From a virus (taxonomy: Duplodnaviria; Heunggongvirae; Uroviricota; Caudoviricetes), in IMG/VR virus record IMGVR_UViG_2645728010_000003: 22,959 nt of DNA; one strand, 5' to 3'. The position numbers and the translations under genes were made by a program. The notes beneath the pieces were generated by a model, which worked only from the letters and a program-made list of their open reading frames with translations, did no database searches and had not been told where the DNA came from. Of the stretch, positions 935 to 17,569 are shown piece after piece. Positions within the stretch are counted from its first letter, which is position 1. Each line of letters opens with the position of its first letter.

Positions 935-2620
935 GTGAATATAAACGTCGCCGAATTGTTAAATGGGAATTACATTCTGTTATTATTTGTGGTCCTCGCG
1001 CTTGGGCTATGTCTCGGAAAGTTACGACTTGGTTCGATCCAACTGGGTAATTCCATTGGCGTTTTAGTCGTATCGCTGTTATTAGGCCAACAACATTTCA
1101 GCATTAACACCGATGCGCTTAATCTTGGCTTTATGCTGTTTATTTTCTGCGTCGGGGTCGAAGCCGGACCGAACTTTTTTTCCATTTTTTTTCGCGATGG
1201 GAAAAATTACCTAATGTTAGCACTGGTGATGGTTGGCAGTGCGCTGGTGATCGCCTTAGGGTTAGGTAAGCTGTTTGGCTGGGATATTGGCCTGACGGCC
1301 GGTATGTTAGCAGGCTCTATGACGTCGACACCGGTTCTGGTCGGTGCTGGCGATACACTGCGTCATTCCGGCATGGAAAGCAGGCAGCTCTCACTGGCAC
1401 TGGATAATCTGAGCCTCGGGTATGCCTTAACCTATTTAATCGGTCTGGTGAGTTTGATTGTTGGTGCGCGTTACTTGCCGAAATTGCAGCATCAGGACTT
1501 ACAGACCAGCGCCCAGCAAATCGCCCGCGAACGTGGCCTGGACACTGATGCCAACCGTAAGGTTTATTTACCGGTGATCCGCGCCTATCGCGTCGGCCCG
1601 GAACTGGTGGCCTGGACCGACGGCAAAAATCTGCGTGAACTGGGTATTTATCGACAAACCGGCTGCTACATTGAACGTATTCGACGTAACGGGATTCTGG
1701 CAAATCCAGACGGTGATGCCGTGCTACAAATGGGCGATGAAATAGCGTTGGTAGGCTATCCCGACGCCCATGCCCGACTCGATCCCAGCTTCCGTAACGG
1801 TAAAGAAGTTTTCGATCGTGACCTTCTCGACATGCGTATCGTCACTGAAGAAGTGGTCGTTAAAAACCATAACGCTGTAGGTAAACGTCTCGCACAACTG
1901 AAGTTGACCGATCACGGTTGCTTCCTTAACCGCGTCATTCGTAGCCAGATTGAGATGCCGATAGATGACAACGTCGTGCTTAACAAAGGTGACGTTTTAC
2001 AAGTCAGCGGCGATGCCCGCCGCGTAAAAACCATCGCCGATCGCATCGGCTTTATCTCGATTCACAGCCAGGTCACTGACCTGCTGGCATTCTGCGCCTT
2101 CTTTGTTATTGGGCTGATGATCGGGATGATCACCTTCCAGTTCAGCACATTCAGTTTCGGCATGGGGAACGCTGCCGGGTTGTTATTCGCCGGAATTATG
2201 CTGGGCTTTATGCGTGCTAACCACCCGACCTTCGGTTACATTCCGCAGGGTGCATTAAGCATGGTGAAAGAGTTCGGCTTGATGGTGTTTATGGCAGGCG
2301 TTGGTCTGAGCGCCGGTAGCGGTATTAATAACGGCCTGGGCGCGATTGGCGGTCAGATGTTGATTGCCGGATTGATTGTCAGTCTGGTGCCCGTGGTTAT
2401 CTGTTTCTTGTTCGGTGCTTATGTATTGCGAATGAACCGCGCGCTGTTGTTCGGCGCAATGATGGGCGCACGTACCTGCGCGCCGGCAATGGAGATCATC
2501 AGTGATACAGCTCGCAGTAACATCCCGGCGCTGGGCTATGCGGGCACCTATGCAATCGCCAACGTCCTGCTGACGCTGGCAGGGACAATCATCGTCATGG
2601 TATGGCCAGGATTAGGATAA
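935..2620 (+). CDS. ybjL: Putative AAE-family transporter YbjL (GTG start)
   Basis: 561-aa polytopic membrane protein with central soluble domains; recognised as E. coli YbjL; start codon is GTG at 935. Confidence 0.93.
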
Positions 2621-2732
2621 AACTGAAGTTGCCCTGAAAATGAAATTTTTTTGCACAACCGCAGAACTTTTCCGCAGGGCATCAGTCTTAATTAGTGCCA
2701 CTGCTTTTCTTTGATGTCCCCATTTTGTGGAG

Positions 2733-2776
2733 CCCATCAACCCCGCCATTTCGGTTCAAGGTTGATGGGTTTTTTG
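2733..2776 (+). terminator. Stem-loop plus T-run downstream of ybjL (approximate coordinates)
   Basis: cccatcaacc ... ggttgatggg inverted repeat followed by tttttt; not anchored to an ORF boundary, so +/- a few nt. Confidence 0.4.
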
Positions 2777-2855
2777 TTGCCTGAAATTTATGCTCTTTAA
2801 AATCATGATGTTAGAAGCACTGTTTTTTAACGATGGCGACAAAATGGCGGCAGCG

Positions 2856-3074
2856 TCAAAGAGAGAGCGCCACCTGTCCTGATTTCATTGGATGCGGCTG
2901 AACCGGATTTGACTCTTTTGGCGTTGCAATCGAACGAACAAAAGTTTCATGAGTAACAAAAGTATGGCTGCAGTTAATGTTCTGGCACTGGTTGTAACGC
3001 TCTTTGGTCAATGAAGATACCTGAAAACTGCTGCGAGTATGGGCGGCACTTCCACACAGTGGGCAAATCATCAT
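2856..3074 (-). CDS. ogr: Ogr-type zinc-finger late-gene activator
   Basis: CPLCGSAAH ... CQNINCSHTF four-Cys pattern as in P2 Ogr; internal Met at 3072-3074 gives a 72-aa product (the track ORF has an 11-codon N-terminal extension). Confidence 0.85.
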   Translation of the reverse strand: MMICPLCGSAAHTRSSFQVSSLTKERYNQCQNINCSHTFVTHETFVRSIATPKESNPVQPHPMKSGQVALSL

Positions 3075-3164
3075 TTTTCGAGTTCTCCCCATTTTTGCTA
3101 AATTCACAATAATGATACCGCATTATTCCATTTTGAGAACTTAAAAGTTCTCCATTGCGAAGAA

Positions 3165-3565
3165 TCATTCCATTTCGAAATCATCAATCTTCACTTCAAG
3201 CTCCAGACTGGTCGTAAAACCGTTATCCGGGCTGACAGTATGCGTCAGGGTGGTAATAGTCCATTCCGCATCATCTATCGGCTGTTTAAAGCCACTGACT
3301 TTCACTGGCATTTCCGTGTAGAGATCTGCCCGCCCTTCCGCCAGTTGTAGCGAGAATGACGCAACGCCGCGTTGCAGGCGTTCCCACTGCATTTTCGCCG
3401 CTCGTTCGGCGTTGCTCCGGTTGGCATAAGTGCGATTAAGTACCAGCACGTTTTCATCCGTACCCACCAGGTAATCGCCCTGCTTCGCTTCCGGCTCTTT
3501 CTTCTGCTTCTTAGTTCTGCGCTTACGCTTCACCGTGGTGCTTTCTTTCTTCGCAGGTTCGCGGG
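3165..3565 (-). pseudogene. D: C-terminal remnant of P2 gpD-like tail protein
   Basis: C-terminal residues (NAERAAKMQWERLQRGVASFS ... LELEVKIDDFEME) resemble the gpD C-terminus; only about 130 codons remain, with no native start. Confidence 0.7.
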
Positions 3566-3811
3566 TAACTCTTCTATCAGCGTAACAAGATGCCGCATAC
3601 TGCGCCCCAACCTGTCCAGCTTCCAGACAACCAGCGTGTCTCCTGCCGATAGTGTCCTGAGCAGTTTTTTCAGCCCCGGTCTGTCGGACTTAGTGCCGCT
3701 GATTTTATCCTCAAAAATCCGCTCACATCCCGCGCAGTTCAGCGCACTACGTTGCAAATCGGTGTTCTGGTCATTTGTTGACACGCGTACATAGCCAATA
3801 AGCATGATCAT
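3530..3811 (-). pseudogene. pin: Pin/Gin/Hin-family serine invertase, N-terminal fragment only
   Basis: MLIGYVRVSTNDQNTDLQ catalytic-Ser motif and resolvase core up to about residue 82, then unrelated residues and a stop; the C-terminal HTH domain is missing. Confidence 0.75.
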
Positions 3812-3832
3812 CTCCTTGAATAAAAATCGGGG

Positions 3833-4375
3833 ATGATGCCAGTTAGTCGTAATCGCTGCATTTTCTTAAACGTTGGTTTGGGAGAAGACTCTGCATTACC
3901 TGTTGGGGTGCCTGTTCCGTGGCCTTCAGCCACTCCGCCTACAGGCTGGCTGAAATGCAATGGTGCAGCTTTTTCTGCTGAAGAATACCCGGAACTGGCA
4001 AAGGCTTATCCGACAAATAAATTGCCTGATTTACGTGGTGAGTTTATTCGTGGCTGGGATGATGGGCGTGGTATTGATGCTGGACGTGCCTTGCTAAGTC
4101 TTCAGAATGGAGGAGTGGAATCACACACCCACCAGGGACAGCTCTTCAGAGTCAGTGATTATCGTACAAAAGAAATACCAGCATCAGAAGTTATGGGAAG
4201 AGGATATATTGCAAGCCTGACGCCGGGTGCTGATAGCCCACTTGATTTTGATGATTATTCTGTATCCTCTAATCCAAATGGATATTTTGTCGGGAATCAG
4301 AGAACAACAGCATATGGGGTAAATGAAACCCGCCCACGGAATATTGCATTTAACTATATCGTGAGGGCTGCATAA
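3833..4375 (+). CDS. Alternative tail-fibre C-terminal cassette (Sv'-like), promoterless in the current orientation
   Basis: Tail-fibre tip-like sequence beginning at a conserved GLGE junction that matches GLGD in H; inverted relative to H. Confidence 0.6.
   Translation: MMPVSRNRCIFLNVGLGEDSALPVGVPVPWPSATPPTGWLKCNGAAFSAEEYPELAKAYPTNKLPDLRGEFIRGWDDGRGIDAGRALLSLQNGGVESHTHQGQLFRVSDYRTKEIPASEVMGRGYIASLTPGADSPLDFDDYSVSSNPNGYFVGNQRTTAYGVNETRPRNIAFNYIVRAA
3863..3886. other. hix/gix-like crossover site (TTCTTAAACGTTGGTTTGGGAGAA)
   Basis: Dyad resembling invertase crossover sites; shares a 13-bp core (TTGGTTTGGGAGA) in inverted orientation with 5950-5974 inside H. Confidence 0.45.
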
Positions 4376-4977
4376 TGGATAACGCTGTATTAAATAGCGA
4401 GCTTATTGCCACGAAGGCGGGAAATATTCCTGTCTATAACTATGATGGTGAAACACGGGAATATATTTCCACTTCAAATGAATATCTTTCCGTTGGTGTC
4501 GGCATTCCGGCATGTTCCTGTTTAGATGCCCCTGGCACACATAAGGCTGATTATGCAATCTGCCGTTCTACAGATTTTAACTCATGGGAATATGTGCCAG
4601 ATCATCGCGGTGAAATCGTCTATAACACCGAAACGGGAGATGCCAAAGAAATCACAGCTCCGGGTGATTACCCTGAAAATACAACCACTATCGCACCGTT
4701 AACGCCATACGATAAATGGGATGGTGAGAAATGGGTGACAGATACTGAGGCACAACACGGTGCCGCAGTAGAAGTGGCAGAAGCACAACGCCAGTCACTG
4801 ATTGATGCAGCAATGGCTTCCATTAGTCTGATTCAGCTGAAATTGCAGGCCGGGCGGAAGCTGATGCAGGCAGAAACCACCCGACTTAACATTGTGCTGG
4901 ATTACATTGACGCGGTGACGGCAACAGATACCAGCACCGCGCCGGATGTCATCTGGCCTGAACTGCCGGAGGCGTAG
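4375..4977 (+). CDS. Alternative tail-fibre assembly chaperone (Tfa'/U'-like)
   Basis: 200-aa ORF with Tfa-like conserved C-terminus (DYIDAV ... PDVIWPELP), translationally coupled to the Sv' cassette. Confidence 0.75.
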   Translation: MDNAVLNSELIATKAGNIPVYNYDGETREYISTSNEYLSVGVGIPACSCLDAPGTHKADYAICRSTDFNSWEYVPDHRGEIVYNTETGDAKEITAPGDYPENTTTIAPLTPYDKWDGEKWVTDTEAQHGAAVEVAEAQRQSLIDAAMASISLIQLKLQAGRKLMQAETTRLNIVLDYIDAVTATDTSTAPDVIWPELPEA

Positions 4978-5386
4978 GCCATTCAATATCTGGCACACTG
5001 GAGGTATCAACCAGCTCCAGTGCGTCCAGATAATCCAGCCACGAATTATATTGCGCCAGTTCCTCGCCTTTCAGACGACCAATAGCGGCTTTACCGGGCC
5101 ATTGTTTACTGTTCATGTATTCGTTGGCCTGATTAATTAATAGCTGTCTTTTTGACTCAGAAATTTCAATAAGTTCTTCATGCGTGGGTGAAGGAATATC
5201 TGCCCACGCAGGCATTCCGTCTGCACCTGCAATACGTCGCTTACCCTGCGGAGGTGTCGCCATAAACGACTCGGCACGTCGGGTTTCAATATCTTTTGCA
5301 TCATCAGGCCATGTGCCGGAATCGCGGTATACGGCCTCATTACCAGCCAGATAAAACGCATTTTTTTTAGCACTGTATTTGTACAT
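4949..5386 (-). CDS. G: Tail-fibre assembly chaperone (gpG/Tfa-like), expressed orientation
   Basis: 145 aa; C-terminus (LDYLDALELVDTSSVPDIEWP) parallels the Tfa' C-terminus; immediately downstream of H. Confidence 0.85.
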   Translation of the reverse strand: MYKYSAKKNAFYLAGNEAVYRDSGTWPDDAKDIETRRAESFMATPPQGKRRIAGADGMPAWADIPSPTHEELIEISESKRQLLINQANEYMNSKQWPGKAAIGRLKGEELAQYNSWLDYLDALELVDTSSVPDIEWPTPPAVQAR

Positions 5387-5387
5387 A

Positions 5388-7010
5388 TTATTTCCCTACC
5401 GCAATCCAGAAAAATGAACTCATGCTGGCTACTGGTGCTCCGCCCGCTGTTGGAATCATCAGATTTCGGACGCCGCATCCTAAATTAGTTATCGTTGGCG
5501 CTGAAATTACTGGCGACTGAACTACGTTAGGAAGCGATGCCTGCTGAGGACCAAATCCCACATACATCGGGTATGCAGAGAACGCGACAGGAAACGTAAT
5601 AAAGATCTCTCCAGTTGATGATGGATTGGCTGCCCCCCACTGAATAATCAGACCTGACGGTAATTTTTGCCAGCCAGGGCTGGTCAGGCTGGATGTGAAG
5701 TCATTCATATCCGGAATCTGATTTGCCCCTGAGCCAACATCCCTTTGAGCCGCACTTTTCAGATCAAGATAAGTTCTTAGTTCAGCCTTATCCTTACCGC
5801 TTAAATCTGTCAGTGTCTGGTCTTTTGGTTGCGCATAGTCTTTTGTTGCCAGACGAACTACTGTATTTGTTCTGGCGAATCGCATATACGGGGCATTGAC
5901 GTTACTACTGTCAAACCCTGCAATTTTACATTCATCACCAATTAATGCATCTCCCAAACCAAGGTATGCGAGAAGACCAGCTACATCCTTTCCACTCAAA
6001 TTAGTCAGCGTATTGTCCAACGGTTGTTTACCTGCCAGCGCATTAAGCATTGTCGTGGCAAAGTTCGGGTCATTCCCCAGCGCCGCAGCCAGTTCGTTCA
6101 GTGTATCCAGTGCAGCAGGTGCAGACCCCACCATTGCCGCAATTGCCGATTTCACAAAAGCCGTGGTGGCAATCTGTGTATTGTTAACCGACTGTGCGGC
6201 AGTGGGGGCTGTTGGCGTTCCGGTGAATGCCGGACTTAACAGCGGCGCTTTCAGTGCCAGCGCATTGTTAATGGTGGTACTGAATTTCGGGTCATTATTA
6301 ATGGCAGCGGCAATTTCTTTCATCGTATCCAGTGTGGCTGGCGCACCATTAATAAGGGCCATCAGTGCCGCCTGAACAAACGCGGTGGTCGCAATCTGCG
6401 TGGTGTTATTCCCCTCCGCTGGCGTTGGCGCTTTGGGTGTTCCGGTCAATGTCGGGCTTTCTTTGGGTGCATACTGTGAATGCGGGTCCGGTGCGGCAAG
6501 ATGTTTTGCCATCTTATCATCCACGAACACCTTCAGCTCCAGTACCTTGTCATCCACATACTTGCGGGTTGCCAGCACGACGGCAGGGTCGATTTTCAGG
6601 GTGATATTGTCCGTGCTGCTGGTAATCAGCACCATGCGCACGGTCTGGGTACGCCCACTGCCTTCAGCCAGTTGCGGCTTATAGCTTTCCGGGCAGTTTC
6701 CCACGGCAATCAATGCCCCGGACTCATCAAACAGGCCCACTTCACGTATCCACCAACCGCCCTCATTTTCAGGGATTACCTGTTCAGCAATAATCTGGCT
6801 ACTGTTCTGCGGGTCGATATAGAGCATATTCAGCGCAGCCCGGCGTTTCTCATTCACCAGTGCAGTCTGCTTTGCATCCGGCGTTGGCAATACTCCGCCG
6901 CCATCGCCGACCGCCATATGGGTAATTTTTAAAGGCACACCGAGCGCGGCGGCGCTGGCAAGTTTCGCCGCGCCAATATCCGTCAGCAGGGTATAAAATT
7001 TTGTGCTCAT
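5388..7010 (-). CDS. H: Tail fibre protein (gpH-like)
   Basis: 540 aa; conserved P2 H-type N-terminus, repeated NxxALxxKAPL / TGTPTAP collar motifs, variable C-terminus. Confidence 0.9.
   Translation of the reverse strand: MSTKFYTLLTDIGAAKLASAAALGVPLKITHMAVGDGGGVLPTPDAKQTALVNEKRRAALNMLYIDPQNSSQIIAEQVIPENEGGWWIREVGLFDESGALIAVGNCPESYKPQLAEGSGRTQTVRMVLITSSTDNITLKIDPAVVLATRKYVDDKVLELKVFVDDKMAKHLAAPDPHSQYAPKESPTLTGTPKAPTPAEGNNTTQIATTAFVQAALMALINGAPATLDTMKEIAAAINNDPKFSTTINNALALKAPLLSPAFTGTPTAPTAAQSVNNTQIATTAFVKSAIAAMVGSAPAALDTLNELAAALGNDPNFATTMLNALAGKQPLDNTLTNLSGKDVAGLLAYLGLGDALIGDECKIAGFDSSNVNAPYMRFARTNTVVRLATKDYAQPKDQTLTDLSGKDKAELRTYLDLKSAAQRDVGSGANQIPDMNDFTSSLTSPGWQKLPSGLIIQWGAANPSSTGEIFITFPVAFSAYPMYVGFGPQQASLPNVVQSPVISAPTITNLGCGVRNLMIPTAGGAPVASMSSFFWIAVGK
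5950..5974. other. Second crossover site, inside H at the constant/variable junction
   Basis: TCTCCCAAACCAAGGTATGCGAGAA; inverted partner of the 3863-3886 site; encodes LAYLGLGDA in H. Confidence 0.45.
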
Positions 7011-7612
7011 GGATTCACTCTCATTGTGTCAATAACATGGACCGCCCCGCCTTCATGCGCGGTGCCACCGGAAATAATTGTTTCGTTGATATACGGATAG
7101 ATCGTGATTTCTTCGCCAAGATAGCTGGCGGCTCCCACCCAATGCGGGCCGCTGGTCTGCAGGTTGATGGACATGCCGATCATGTGACGGCTGCATGGTT
7201 TGGCATCGCTTATCAGTCGCTCAAGTTCCAGATAGGTATCTTCAGTGATGCCCTGGTCCTGCACGCCGATATCCAGACGAAACGTGCCCGGTGTCTCTCC
7301 GGTCTGCCACCACTCAATAATGCGGATCAGAAAGCCGAACGGCTCCACCACCCGCCGCACGGCACTGGTGGTCCCTTTATGCTGATGAATATAAAAAGCA
7401 TCCTTCACCACCTGGCGCTTGACACTTTCTGTCCAGTCCTCGTCCCAGCGATCCACAGAGAACGCCCAGGCGAGATAAGGCAGGAAACTGACCGGACAGG
7501 TTGCCGGATTCCACAAGTCACGAAGCGGCACCTGCAGATCAGAAATCCCGCTGCAGGTTTGCGCCAGTCGGCGCTCCAGTGGTGTTGAACCCGGTGGCAG
7601 CAGACTATTCAT
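7007..7612 (-). CDS. I: Baseplate protein (gpI-like)
   Basis: Conserved gpI-like residues (LWNP.TCP ... LPYLAWAFSVDRWDE ... GTFRLDIGV). Confidence 0.85.
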   Translation of the reverse strand: MNSLLPPGSTPLERRLAQTCSGISDLQVPLRDLWNPATCPVSFLPYLAWAFSVDRWDEDWTESVKRQVVKDAFYIHQHKGTTSAVRRVVEPFGFLIRIIEWWQTGETPGTFRLDIGVQDQGITEDTYLELERLISDAKPCSRHMIGMSINLQTSGPHWVGAASYLGEEITIYPYINETIISGGTAHEGGAVHVIDTMRVNP

Positions 7613-9537: not shown

Positions 9538-10344
9538 ATGAGTGTTATGAATCCAATAAGTTCTAATATATTTAATGCTGAATTTTTAAACACCCCGGCA
9601 GCGGCACTTGCCGCATGGATTTCCATTATTGGAGCTGTTATAACTTTGGTGACGATAGTTATAAGAGCACTATTCAAATATAGAAAATCTCATGATGTAA
9701 TTTTGAAAAAATCAGGAATACCTGCGTTTATATTAAATTTTTTTCTTATACGAATATCATTAAAAAGGCTGCCTACTATCACATGGGCTGAAAAATCAAT
9801 CACGGTTCTCTTTTCACTTCTTTTTTTGTGTGCAATTTATATTTTTGGTCCAGTTTTCATCCAAGCCATTAGAACCCCACCAAATAGCACATTGCTTTAT
9901 TGGATAAAGTCCGGTGAATCATTTTATATGTCAAAAAAACTGGCGACTGCAGCTACAATATTAACCACTCCTGATTGGGAAATATCAAAAGATGATTGCG
10001 AAGAGTCATCCTCTGCCAGTACAGAGAAGTACAAATCATTAACTATCGAACATAAAGAAATTCTTTGTAAACTACTAACCACTGATGAAGGGAATACTTA
10101 CATTGATGAAGAAGTCAAGAATTTCGTTAAAGACAAATTCTTTATCTATTCCTTTGCCCCAACAACCATATTTATTCTATTATGGATTTCTTTGGGTTTT
10201 ATACTGACCATTCACTATTCTAAAAAAGTTAGGAAATATATTCTGACTGAACAAAAAAATGCAATTCATTGGGCATATGGTGAATTCAAGACAGAAGGAA
10301 TCTATTCAATATATCACGAGTTAGAACGTAAGACTCACCATTAA
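9538..10344 (+). CDS. AT-rich moron: polytopic membrane protein of unknown function
   Basis: 268 aa, about 4 predicted TM helices plus a charged soluble domain; AGGTGGA Shine-Dalgarno 5 nt upstream; low GC against a GC-rich late operon; opposite strand to flanking V and S. Confidence 0.7.
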   Translation: MSVMNPISSNIFNAEFLNTPAAALAAWISIIGAVITLVTIVIRALFKYRKSHDVILKKSGIPAFILNFFLIRISLKRLPTITWAEKSITVLFSLLFLCAIYIFGPVFIQAIRTPPNSTLLYWIKSGESFYMSKKLATAATILTTPDWEISKDDCEESSSASTEKYKSLTIEHKEILCKLLTTDEGNTYIDEEVKNFVKDKFFIYSFAPTTIFILLWISLGFILTIHYSKKVRKYILTEQKNAIHWAYGEFKTEGIYSIYHELERKTHH

Positions 10345-15511: not shown

Positions 15512-15531
15512 CGAAGACCATTAGGTCTTCG
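15512..15531. terminator. Bidirectional hairpin shared by convergent Q and retron RT
   Basis: cgaagacc-atta-ggtcttcg with T-rich flanks on both strands; the RT stop codon lies in the loop. Confidence 0.6.
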
Positions 15532-16483
15532 CTTTATTTAAAGGGTTCTTTCCATATTTTTTTTCTAATTTGCTAATATAAGTTATTAATCTCCTATGGC
15601 TTTTTGAATCCACACTTAAAATAAATGACAACCATCCCCTAACGTGTTCTATCTCAGAAGACTTACCGCAAAATATATGATGTATCTTTGCTCTAATTTC
15701 TTTATATTTTTCTCTACCTATCCCAACTTTCTCTTGTGAAATAACTAAACCTGTAACTTTCCTCTGACTACGAGGCCCACTAATACAAGTTTTTTTTGAG
15801 TTAATAACCAATCCTTCACTTGGGATTATAGAAAATAAAAAATCACGTGCTTTAACAACCTTTTTCATAGACTGTGCAGATAAGGTGAGATCATCGGCAT
15901 ATCTCGTATATATCAAGCCCCGACTACCTGCATAACCCTGAATACGATAATCAAGTTTAGAACATATTAGATTAGCTAATTTAGGTGATGATGGAGCACC
16001 TTGTGGTAGCAGATTTTTATAACAACATATTTTTGTCAAAACTGAAGATATTAGTCGATTATAACCAAGAGAATGGAACACTCCAAAAACTTTGTTAGCA
16101 GTTAAACTTGGGAAAAAATCCTCCAAATCAATATTCAGTATAAAGTTTGCCCCAATATGCGGGGTAGCATTATTCAAAATAGATTGGTGCTTTTCAAATC
16201 CAATAGAAAAAGGAGATGACGACAGTTTATCTAAAATGTTACGTAGAACCCATCCTTGTAAGGCTTTAAGTTCTCGAGAAGGTTGGTAAATGGTTCTCAT
16301 TCTCTTCTCTGGGCCTTTCTTTTCTACAGTGTAGATCCTATAGCGAAAATCAGCTGTATAGATTAACAACCGAAGTGTTTCAACAGATATGCGAGTCGCC
16401 TTAGACATGTCATGCAAATTGTTCATGACAGGTAGGCCGAGATTTCTCAATCTAAAAGTGTTCAAATATTCAGCGGATTTCAT
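15521..16483 (-). CDS. ret: Retron reverse transcriptase (Ec86/Eco1-type)
   Basis: 320 aa; RT motifs including LPQGAPSSP and YTRYADDLTLS (YADD box); directly downstream of the msr-msd locus; matches my memory of the Ec86 RT. Confidence 0.95.
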   Translation of the reverse strand: MKSAEYLNTFRLRNLGLPVMNNLHDMSKATRISVETLRLLIYTADFRYRIYTVEKKGPEKRMRTIYQPSRELKALQGWVLRNILDKLSSSPFSIGFEKHQSILNNATPHIGANFILNIDLEDFFPSLTANKVFGVFHSLGYNRLISSVLTKICCYKNLLPQGAPSSPKLANLICSKLDYRIQGYAGSRGLIYTRYADDLTLSAQSMKKVVKARDFLFSIIPSEGLVINSKKTCISGPRSQRKVTGLVISQEKVGIGREKYKEIRAKIHHIFCGKSSEIEHVRGWLSFILSVDSKSHRRLITYISKLEKKYGKNPLNKAKT

Positions 16484-16489
16484 GAAAGT

Positions 16490-16658
16490 TGCGCACCCTT
16501 ACGTCAGAAAAAACGGGTTTCCTGGTTGGCTCGGAGAGCATCAGGCGATGCTCTCCGTTCCAACAAGGAAAACAGACAGTAACTCAGATTCAATGCAGGA
16601 TGCCGAAACAACATCCAGAGGTTGACCTTAATGATAAACCTCTCGCTAAGGGTGCGCA
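16490..16658 (-). ncRNA. msr-msd: Retron msr-msd non-coding RNA (msDNA template)
   Basis: Flanked by 12-bp inverted repeats a2 (16490-16501, TGCGCACCCTTA) and a1 (16647-16658); internal perfect 10-bp hairpin at 16533-16556; minus-strand sequence matches what I recall of Ec86 msr/msd. Confidence 0.9.
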
Positions 16659-17569
16659 TACGGAATCTTATCATAGTTAAATGTTGATTTTCTACGGTTT
16701 TCAAAATTCATAATCTCAAGCCGCAATCGGTCAAGTGTCTTTCTATCAAAGACGCTCCTAACATAGCTAGCCCCCAAAGCAGTGACCTGATAACCATCAG
16801 TCATTTGAAGTATTTTTCGTTCATTTATTAGACGAGAAACAACGGATCTAACAATAATTTTAGATAAAACATCATCTTGCTTTATCGCTTTAAAAGCTAG
16901 TTCACACAGTGTGCGGTAGTTGACACTATCCAGTAAATAGATACAAGGCAATAGAAACCGCTCTGCGTATAATATATTTCCAATATCTTTTGATACTTTA
17001 TTTTCTTTCCTAACCTTCTTAATAGATGCCATTAATTTTTTATATAATCGTAATTTTCTGGCAACATCAATAGATGAATCACACATTTCTTTTAGTTCAT
17101 TTGAACTACAACGCAAAACAGATTTTGAATTAAACTTACGCAACAGGCGAACAGGACCATAGTTAATAAAGCTACGTTTTGATTTAAATTTTGCATCTTG
17201 AATGCAAATCAACTTTCTCCTTAAGTTTTCATTATTAGAGAACGCACCAAGCTCTGTGAAAGACCCCGGACTTTCAGGAAATAAAATTATTACATCGACA
17301 GCTTCAGCCAGAATATTTTCTAAACTTAAAAGGCTATGCTGCCCTTGACCAGCCAAAAGATCATCAAATAGATCTTCTGGATAAAATATATCAACATCAC
17401 TGAACTTTGCTAAAAATTGTGATAATTGATGACGCCAAGATTGATGATTAGCAACGTCACCACCACATAGAAAAATGGTTATTTTAATATTAGCTCCTCG
17501 ATAGAAGCCTTTCTTTGTGAGATGTCCTATAAGCTGTTGTTGCTGCTCATCGGTAAATTTTTTATTCAT
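16646..17569 (-). CDS. Retron effector, nucleoside 2-deoxyribosyltransferase-like N-terminal domain plus C-terminal domain
   Basis: 307 aa directly upstream of msr; Rossmann-like IFLCGG ... ILFPESPGSFTELG pattern; stop codon overlaps a1; GGGGAG RBS. Confidence 0.8.
   Translation of the reverse strand: MNKKFTDEQQQQLIGHLTKKGFYRGANIKITIFLCGGDVANHQSWRHQLSQFLAKFSDVDIFYPEDLFDDLLAGQGQHSLLSLENILAEAVDVIILFPESPGSFTELGAFSNNENLRRKLICIQDAKFKSKRSFINYGPVRLLRKFNSKSVLRCSSNELKEMCDSSIDVARKLRLYKKLMASIKKVRKENKVSKDIGNILYAERFLLPCIYLLDSVNYRTLCELAFKAIKQDDVLSKIIVRSVVSRLINERKILQMTDGYQVTALGASYVRSVFDRKTLDRLRLEIMNFENRRKSTFNYDKIPYAHP

Follow-up and report, generated by a model that had tools for sequence, protein, structure and literature searches.

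The region analysed here is, with a probability of roughly 93%, a host-range module of the Din family of invertible segments (Hin/Gin/Cin/Pin), of the Pin/pix type known from e14, that has become frozen in E. coli B. By the window we mean the whole 22,959-bp stretch of DNA, which consists of E. coli B/BL21 chromosome (grxA–ybjL) followed by a multiply deleted P2-like prophage; the segment lies in this defective prophage, between rcdA and ybjL. The E. coli B/BL21 prophage itself is already known and has long been recognised as defective, and P2 Hy dis presumably arose historically by recombination with it. Our literature text searches found no explicit description of the B copy of the segment, and an Rfam scan of the whole window returned RybB at 2700–2778 as its sole match, with none in the segment region. 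The earlier note, made from the sequence alone, had read the region as a fossil invertible tail-fibre segment, a reading now supported by the crossover sites, by the orientation of the segment in relatives and by a truncated invertase.

In a working copy of such a module, a serine invertase encoded beside the segment would pair two inverted 26-bp sites, assisted by Fis at an enhancer that lies within the 5′ part of the same invertase gene, and strand exchange at the central AA dinucleotide would flip the ~2.09 kb in between. Each flip would change which of two C-terminal tips, both with an assembly chaperone of their own, is joined to the constant part of tail-fibre gene H, so that the phage population would display two specificities of receptor binding. 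By deletion, the invertase of E. coli B lost its dimerisation helix and DNA-binding domain, which left the switch dead, with a gp53-like tip expressed and a collar-type tip silent.

Alternative cassettes and crossover sites

Tail-fibre gene H (5388–7010, minus strand; 540 aa, with Pfam Phage_tail_fib and Gp53-like_C) is made up of two parts. Its constant N-terminal part, Hc (5963–7010, minus strand; Phage_tail_fib, residues 1–150), lies outside the segment and is common to both alternative fibres, and its variable C-terminal part, Hv (5388–5960, minus strand), carries the gp53-like C-terminal domain (Gp53-like_C, H residues 449–539) and is the tip now expressed. The chaperone gene of this tip, tfa (4949–5386, minus strand; 145 aa, Pfam Caudo_TAP), encodes WP_000280166.1, a protein accession that recurs in the annotation of the e14 variant of strain PF9285, within its silent cassette. 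On the plus strand, a silent collar-type, StfE-like tip cassette (3875–4375; Pfam Collar), with neither a constant part nor a promoter of its own, precedes the gene for a tfaE-like assembly chaperone (4375–4977; 200 aa, Pfam Caudo_TAP), annotated as tfaE. The ORF of the alternative tip is annotated as 3833–4375 (plus strand), with a start at 3833 that is fortuitous. Positions 3557–4105, from the invertase 5′ end into the collar tip, share 86.7% DNA identity with the 5′ end of e14 pinE and stfE, and positions 4325–5116, covering tfaE and the 3′ end of tfaP, share 88.9% with e14. The RefSeq annotation of BL21(DE3) is concordant with our gene calls for the region; the 180-aa ‘phage tail protein’ at 3833–4375, listed there as a stand-alone gene, is really a promoterless cassette without an N-terminal part. 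Both the H plus tfa pair claimed by the earlier note for the minus strand and the alternative tip plus second tfa claimed for the plus strand are present by ORFs, Pfam and RefSeq. Moreover, ORFs, Pfam and in-silico inversion together reveal the cassette arrangement that marks the Din family, that is, alternative C-terminal cassettes in opposite orientations, each with its own chaperone, and a constant N-terminal part outside.

Two crossover sites delimit these cassettes. Site L, the invertase-proximal one (3861–3886, minus strand; 26 bp, core dinucleotide at 3873–3874), has the reverse complement TTCTCCCAAACC AA CGTTTAAGAAAA and is identical at 25 of 26 positions to the pin-proximal pix site of e14 and to the proximal site of phage pro483; its single private change is A>T at position 6 of the outer half-site, a position that varies among known sites. 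Site R, within gene H (5949–5974, plus strand; 26 bp, core dinucleotide at 5961–5962), reads ATCTCCCAAACC AA GGTATGCGAGAA and likewise matches 25 of 26 positions, here of the distal site of pro483, p13P477T-2 and 2017.15.01CC, the private change being T>A at position 1, which turns GLGE into GLGD. The two sites are inverted relative to each other and have the layout of 12-bp half-site, AA and 12-bp half-site, with the same 2-bp core in both, as in cixL and cixR of P1, for which the P1 record marks the crossover points. The exact core common to both sites is the 13-bp TCTCCCAAACCAA, in agreement with the two inverted crossover-like sites and 13-bp core described in the earlier note, and the ~2.09 kb of flipping DNA between the core dinucleotides bears out its segment size of about 2.1 kb. 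The note had also proposed alignment to known crossover sites as a check, and both sites align base for base with crossover sites of the Din family that were defined by experiment.

A repeat search gave 3861–3885/5950–5974 as the top inverted repeat (25 nt, 80% complementary). In 4.5 kb of DNA, a repeat of this length and identity is not in itself unusual. Searching the 22,959 bp for the pix-type pattern TTCTCCCAAACCAASGTWT with at most three mismatches retrieved sites L and R only, with 0.06 expected, and two or more sites occurred in none of 100 shuffled sequences. We considered a chance inverted repeat and rejected it, since the repeat matches the pix pattern and real crossover sites of e14, pro483 and P1. 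Both sites fall on a coding junction, LAYL/GLGD in H and FLNV/GLGE in the alternative tip, and the corresponding motif is NLGLGE in e14, NLGLQE in Mu and YLGLRE in P1. The conserved GLG(D/E) junction claimed earlier for this segment and for Mu and P1 alike thus stands for H and the alternative tip; in Mu and P1 it has to be widened to LGL(G/Q/R)(E/D), GLG(D/E) being the e14 type.

In-silico inversion and orientation in relatives

Inverting the segment in silico fused the collar tip in frame to Hc, generating an open 516-aa H′ with the tfaE-like gene directly downstream. Both junctions predicted by this inversion exist in nature. The Hc–collar junction is found in 62 records (up to 98% identity), and the junction between the invertase and the gp53 tip occurs in strain PF9285, where the B-type gp53 tip is a silent cassette adjoining a complete pinE, with 93% identity across the predicted junction. 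In prophage 2017.15.01CC, which has an intact 188-aa recombinase, H is 96.5% identical to Hc and collinear with it, starting exactly at 5950, and the invertase and its site are likewise collinear with the window (94.4%), whereas the block of collar tip and tfaE (93.3%) runs the other way round, its homology breaking off exactly at the two sites. Phage pro483, taken as the intact reference, has the order V-W-J-I-H-tfa, tfa′-tip′, invertase and then sheath-tube-…-D, and shares the orientation of the window, opposite to that of 2017.15.01CC. Both orientations are thus seen among relatives with intact invertases, but not in the E. coli B copy. For the e14 Pin segment and for segments in EPEC P2-like prophages, inversion in culture has been demonstrated (PMC4272514).

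These comparisons bear on whether the region was ever invertible. Tail-fibre genes are notoriously mosaic and short inverted repeats of like length and quality are common in the region, so it might be supposed that two convergent fibre modules came together as a mosaic and that the repeat reflects conserved LGLG(D/E) coding and nothing else. We give this virtually no credence: the match extends over full-length 26-bp crossover sites and takes in the outer half of site L, which is non-coding; the alternative tip lacks a constant part; an invertase remnant is positioned exactly as in e14, pro483, Mu and P1; and the comparative data already contradict such an origin, the same block being opposite in relatives with its breakpoints at the sites. 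An invertible module that lost its function later is the reading we retain.

Truncated invertase and the frozen state in E. coli B

Immediately to the left of the segment lies a truncated gene for a Pin-like serine invertase of the Din family (3566–3805, minus strand), which had been absent from the earlier note. A complete Din-family invertase has ~184–197 aa; its catalytic serine stands close to residue 10, and it has a helix E and ends in a helix-turn-helix. In place of such a complete enzyme beside the segment, codons 1–80 alone are left; they encode the catalytic-serine motif VRVSTNDQ, but the deletion took helix E and the DNA-binding helix-turn-helix at the C-terminus. The retained part is 88, 86, 76 and 78% identical to PinE, the pro483 invertase, Gin and Cin respectively, and is followed by an unrelated 11-aa tail; it covers only positions 2–89 of the 145 in the Pfam Resolvase profile, and PGAP calls it a pseudogene ‘missing C-terminus’. 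Judged by its sequence, with 88% identity to PinE, the descent of the remnant from the Din family is clear. On the far side of the truncating deletion is a 3′ fragment of P2 gene D, the tail/baseplate hub (3165–3566, minus strand), annotated by PGAP as a pseudogene ‘missing N-terminus’. The fragment spans positions 220–302 of the 305 in Pfam Phage_GPD at 29.0 bits (gathering cut-off, 30.1 bits) and is 97% identical to D of the WWCOL-315 prophage up to position 3567, which places the deletion junction in the window at ~3566/3567. The deletion fused codon 80 of the invertase to the remaining 3′ portion of D and took away the genes for sheath, tube and tape measure. Because the adjacent invertase gene is truncated, the segment is a fossil.

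What remains of the invertase gene includes the region equivalent to the Fis-dependent recombinational enhancer (3716–3787, minus strand; invertase nt 19–90), with the Cin enhancer annotated at cin nt 19–90 in the P1 record as reference. This stretch is identical to the P1 Cin enhancer at 55 of 72 positions, and to pinE and pro483 at 63 of 72 each; its position and its match to the annotated P1 enhancer suggest that it may serve as an enhancer.

We then compared orientations in the B lineage. All 44 complete B-lineage genomes carry the native arrangement (match at ≥80% coverage), and the best 30 of these 44 matches, those listed, are all 100% identical. The in-silico inverted form found no record at ≥80% coverage, and none in the B lineage. 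Since an assembly gives only the majority orientation, and a reference may have guided some of those for B strains, inversion at low frequency could escape the 44/44 count. For a helper invertase, B genomes were searched at the DNA level by ‘distant’ blastn (reach ~65–70% identity) with a B-specific anchor joined to full pinE, which located one pin-like place in DE3 strains and two in other B strains. The second place was rejected as a helper, since in REL606 it is a 112-nt C-terminal fragment within a lambdoid-remnant pseudogene at att-lambda. This DNA-level search, with its reach of ~65–70% identity, yielded no complete Din-family invertase in B genomes; a much more divergent serine recombinase would escape it, yet pix sites would be unlikely substrates for such an enzyme.

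It could be argued that inversion continues in E. coli B, driven by a trans-acting invertase from elsewhere in the genome or by the 80 N-terminal residues that remain. Neither site, nor the enhancer-equivalent region, nor either cassette has been disrupted, and cross-complementation among Din invertases is established. Such cross-complementation is also echoed in PMC4272514. Nevertheless, we regard continued activity as very improbable, given 44 of 44 B-lineage genomes in one orientation and none inverted, other pin-like DNA in B limited to the 112-nt pseudogene fragment with DE3 strains lacking even this second match, and a truncated protein without helix E and DNA-binding domain. The segment is therefore best described as frozen in E. 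coli B, because its invertase was truncated by deletion and no other complete Din invertase is detectable. Together with the single orientation in 44 of 44 genomes, the cut after residue 80 and the lack of a second detectable Din invertase uphold the ‘fossil’ status proposed earlier.

With both sites, both cassettes and the enhancer-equivalent region preserved, Pin, Gin or Cin provided in trans should set the segment flipping again, the sites being predicted to be competent. A double loss is conceivable, in which, besides the missing invertase, the private site substitutions or enhancer changes would block recombination even with an invertase supplied. Each site is one base off those of relatives with working invertases, and A at half-site position 1 occurs in none of 16 tabulated reference half-sites. 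We nonetheless consider this unlikely, as the changed positions vary among functional sites (C, A, G or T at position 6; T or C at position 1), no change affects the conserved AAAC block or the AA core, and the enhancer-equivalent stretch is as near to pinE as that of pro483 (63/72 each).

A segment frozen with competent sites would have some practical consequences. BL21 and REL606 naturally contain two silent pix-type sites, have no invertase of their own that could be detected, and thus offer a clean background for assays of Din invertases or engineered serine invertases; conversely, an introduced Din invertase could rearrange the BL21/REL606 segment unintentionally. Rather more speculatively, and in our opinion doubtfully, the relic may persist as a dormant switch that an incoming Din invertase could flip (Cin in P1 transduction, Gin in Mu infection) or as a reservoir of two receptor-binding tips that incoming P2-like or e14-like phages could acquire by recombination. 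The occurrence of the same cassettes in e14 variants and P2-like prophages, and the presumed origin of P2 Hy dis, are consistent with such a role. Whole invertible modules and single cassettes move between e14-like and P2-like elements, which fits the known modular evolution of tail fibres. The B segment is an ordinary relic of a textbook system, one more decayed Pin/Gin/Cin host-range switch, and its scientific weight is small, this being a decayed copy of a classical switch in a defective prophage.

Comparison with known invertible segments

The closest known system is the Pin/pix P segment of e14 in E. coli K-12 (pinE, stfE′, tfaE, tfaP, stfP/ycfK). Both follow the same order of invertase, site, silent tip, tfa, convergent tfa, expressed tip, site and constant part, with crossover on the same LGLGE coding junction. 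Site L differs from the pin-proximal pix site at a single position of 26, the N-terminal remnant has 88% protein identity with PinE, and in DNA the 5′ end of its gene, the collar tip and tfaE reach 87–89%. The e14 variant of PF9285 has, moreover, a B-type tip and a tfa with the same protein accession as the B tfa. They differ in that the B segment resides in a P2-like myovirus prophage at ybjL, that of K-12 in the e14 element at icd, and in that the constant part in B is a P2-type H rather than StfP, with a second tip that is gp53-like instead of StfP-type. Unlike the e14 segment, which is active in K-12 (PMC4272514), that of B has a truncated invertase and does not flip. Intact P2-like modules (pro483, 2017.15.01CC, EPEC E2348/69) resemble it in their place in the P2 late region, flanked by H and the sheath gene FI, in their sites (25/26 each) and in having the same collar tip plus tfaE cassette, but these relatives retain an invertase of 188–197 aa and the FI-FII-E-T-U-D tail genes.

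With the G segment of Mu (Gin/gix) and the C segment of P1 (Cin/cix), the B module shares the mechanism class, the overall design, 26-bp sites of 12-2-12 layout, the position of the putative enhancer in the invertase 5′ end and crossover in a tail-fibre gene at an LGLxE junction, and its invertase N-terminus is 76–78% identical to Gin and Cin. By contrast, the segments of Mu (3 kb) and P1 (4.2 kb) exceed it in size and carry S/U-type fibres, the core dinucleotide is GA in Mu rather than AA, and the cassette sequences are unrelated except at the junction. Of the label ‘G-segment/shufflon-like’ given in the earlier note, the invertible segment holds; the closest family is Pin/pix of e14 and not Mu G, and the likeness to a multi-site shufflon fails. 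Rci shufflons of R64 and the Min system of p15B are comparable in that programmed rearrangement swaps C-terminal ends of adhesins or fibres. However, shufflons employ the tyrosine recombinase Rci at many sfx sites and p15B Min has six sites, whereas the B segment has exactly two sites and a recombinase remnant of the resolvase/invertase serine family, on which grounds we rejected a shufflon identity.

Tail-fibre genes and crossover sites

The tail-fibre region carries two convergent gene pairs, all four members of which were found with the expected Pfam domains, in line with the earlier note. The pair currently expressed, on the minus strand, comprises H (5388–7010; 540 aa, with a Phage_tail_fib N-terminus and a Gp53-like_C tip) and tfa (4949–5386; 145 aa, Caudo_TAP), and the silent pair, on the plus strand, an alternative tip ORF (3833–4375; 180 aa, Collar) and the tfaE-like tfa' (4375–4977; 200 aa, Caudo_TAP). 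RefSeq treats 3833–4375 as an independent gene for a 180-aa 'phage tail protein' (WP_012767713.1). The ATG annotated as its start is fortuitous and lies upstream of the crossover site, and residues 1–14 are translated from the flank and non-coding outer half of that site. The constant part of H contains a 94-nt direct repeat (6144–6237/6366–6459; 71% identity, 222 nt apart) encoding a repeated motif, ...NNTQIATTAFV..., which looks like an internal shaft-repeat duplication comparable to the annotated P1 S repeats and those of other tail fibres.

The top inverted repeat within 3000–7500 in a repeat search (3861–3885/5950–5974; 25 nt, 80% complementarity) is not significant by itself. It coincides with the two proposed crossover sites, the invertase-proximal site L (3861–3886) and site R inside H (5949–5974), which do share the exact 13-bp core TCTCCCAAACCAA attributed to them. 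Moreover, the pix-type pattern TTCTCCCAAACCAASGTWT (pix being the crossover site of e14), searched with up to three mismatches across 22,959 bp, matched only at sites L and R, with a chance expectation of 0.06 and two hits in 0 of 100 shuffles. Reference sites came from MG1655 e14, Mu, phage pro483, two prophages and P1, in whose record cixL, cixR and the crossover points are marked, and sites L and R proved alignable, as proposed, with those of e14, pro483 and P1. Site L (reverse complement) reads TTCTCCCAAACC AA CGTTTAAGAAAA and the proximal site of e14 and pro483 TTCTCCCAAACC AA CGTTTATGAAAA; site R reads ATCTCCCAAACC AA GGTATGCGAGAA and the distal site of pro483 and of the prophage of strain 2017.15.01CC TTCTCCCAAACC AA GGTATGCGAGAA; P1 cixR is TTCTCTTAAACC AA GGTATTGGATAA. 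Each window site is one base away from a site serving an intact invertase, both changes being at positions variable among the 16 reference half-sites, and the core dinucleotide, which must be the same in both sites for strand exchange, is AA in each. The reading frames cross the sites as LAYL|GLGD in H (site R) and FLNV|GLGE in the silent tip (site L). The claim that crossover falls on a GLG(D/E) junction as in Mu, P1 and e14 holds for e14, where the same coding junction is used (NLGLGE), but is slightly too specific for Mu (NLGLQE) and P1 (YLGLRE).

The inverted arrangement in silico and in relatives

Inversion of 3873–5962 in silico yields an open 516-aa alternative H, in which residues 1–350 of the constant N-terminal part (Hc) continue into GLGEDSALPVG... 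and the collar tip, with the tfaE-like gene directly after. A total of 62 E. coli records contain the predicted Hc–collar junction, at identities reaching 98%. Its best match, the prophage of strain 2017.15.01CC, encodes a complete 188-aa recombinase and has the collar tip and tfaE on the expressed strand, with a gp53-like tip and tfa silent beside the recombinase. Relative to the window, this prophage is collinear over Hc from 5950 (96.5%) and over the invertase and site up to 3887 (94.4%), with 3870–5011 inverted (93.3%); the inversion breakpoints between the two are sites L and R.

The other predicted junction, linking invertase, site and the B-type gp53 tip, is present in strain PF9285, in an e14 variant where it adjoins a complete pinE. 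This variant (4167–7133 of its locus) lies at icd with mcrA and pinE. Its P segment has the B-type gp53-like tip, and in the silent position a tfa with the protein accession of the BL21 one (WP_000280166.1). Single cassettes thus move between e14-like and P2-like elements. Published whole-genome work has shown inversion in culture of the e14 segment and of segments in EPEC P2-like prophages (PMC4272514).

A truncated invertase and an apparently frozen segment in E. coli B

Immediately left of site L, the minus strand carries the remnant of a Pin-like gene. Its residues 1–80 share 88% identity with PinE, 86% with the invertase of pro483, 78% with Cin and 76% with Gin. Past residue 80 its frame enters an unrelated 11-residue tail, and only profile positions 2–89 of the 145 in the Pfam Resolvase catalytic domain are matched. 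Having lost helix E and the helix-turn-helix domain, the product would, from what is established for serine invertases, be unable to bind or recombine DNA. Phage pro483 preserves the full order: H, tfa | tfa', tip' | a 197-aa invertase | sheath, tube, E, E', tape measure, U, D, ogr. In the window, invertase homology ends at ~3567, where the match to the D gene's 3' end begins, so one deletion took out the 3' half of the invertase and everything from FI into D, of which most is gone. The counterpart of the enhancer annotated in P1 (cin nt 19–90) was kept at 3716–3787 (55/72 identical to P1, 63/72 to pinE). At the same ybjL locus, the P2-like prophage of strain WWCOL-315 (6066–7305 of its locus), which has also lost H, carries a different invertase–D fusion, with ~125 recombinase codons and a 293-aa D; around the junction, E. 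coli B is missing another 598 bp relative to that prophage, which suggests that deletions here were stepwise or repeated.

RefSeq annotation of BL21(DE3) places grxA–ybjM–ybjL before the P2-like prophage, which begins with ogr and two pseudogenes, D ('missing N-terminus') and a recombinase ('missing C-terminus'). A phage tail protein, tfaE, another tail fibre assembly protein and the phage tail protein H come next, ahead of I, J, W and V, and the prophage ends with an integrase adjoining rcdA. The prophage is multiply defective, since further deletions join a lysozyme fragment to the capsid scaffold and a replication endonuclease fragment to CII. The RybB sRNA gene (2700–2778, plus strand; Rfam RF00110, 105 bits) separates ybjL from ogr, which starts at 2856, so that the prophage abuts rybB and may have its attachment site at, or close to, the 3' end of that gene. 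Also aboard is a retron, at ~15521–17569 on the minus strand (mapped from BL21(DE3) 877889–879937), annotated as a 'retron St85 family' reverse transcriptase with effector and presumably Ec86, the classical retron of E. coli B; Rfam yielded no ncRNA match for it at the gathering threshold. Between baseplate gene V and virion morphogenesis genes, and opposite in strand to these flanking late genes, 807 nt (9538–10344, plus strand) encode a DUF6216 membrane-like protein; this gene resembles a cargo (moron) insertion into the late operon.

In the sequence collection, 44 records contained the native arrangement of 2600–7100 (at least 80% coverage in one place) versus none with the in-silico inverted one; an active switch is expected to give mixed orientations among assemblies. 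The 30 best matches listed, all 100% identical over the full length, were BL21, BL21(DE3), REL606, ATCC 11303 and further laboratory strains of the B lineage. A helper invertase was sought with a B-specific anchor (3100–3560) joined to complete pinE. At blastn sensitivity this DNA-level search detected no complete Din invertase in B, matching one expected place in DE3 strains and two in other B strains. The second place in REL606 was rejected as a helper, being a 112-nt match to pinE codons 138–175 (85% DNA identity) inside a pseudogene (796551–796661) of a defective lambdoid prophage remnant at att-lambda. This second Din-invertase relic, even smaller than that in the window, lies next to acyltransferase genes and one for tail fibre assembly, and is apparently absent or undetected in DE3 lysogens. 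With one orientation in 44 genomes and no complete Din invertase detected in B, the term 'fossil' is justified. Inversion is probably truly zero in B cultures; judging from their sequences, the sites and enhancer-equivalent region are probably still competent, and supplying Pin, Gin or Cin would be expected to restore inversion.

Relation to known inversion systems

The segment is no shufflon, despite the proposed label 'shufflon-like', since it has only two sites and a serine-type recombinase remnant. By descent, the module belongs to the Din family, within its Pin/pix group, and it lies inside a P2-like prophage, like its counterparts in pro483 and the EPEC prophages. Because of the deletion, the window lacks the complete invertase and the two observed orientations of a functional Din segment; both orientations are seen in its relatives. 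Nothing in its mechanism is new, and since our literature search found no published description of this particular E. coli B relic, we file it as a decayed member newly added to a known kind.
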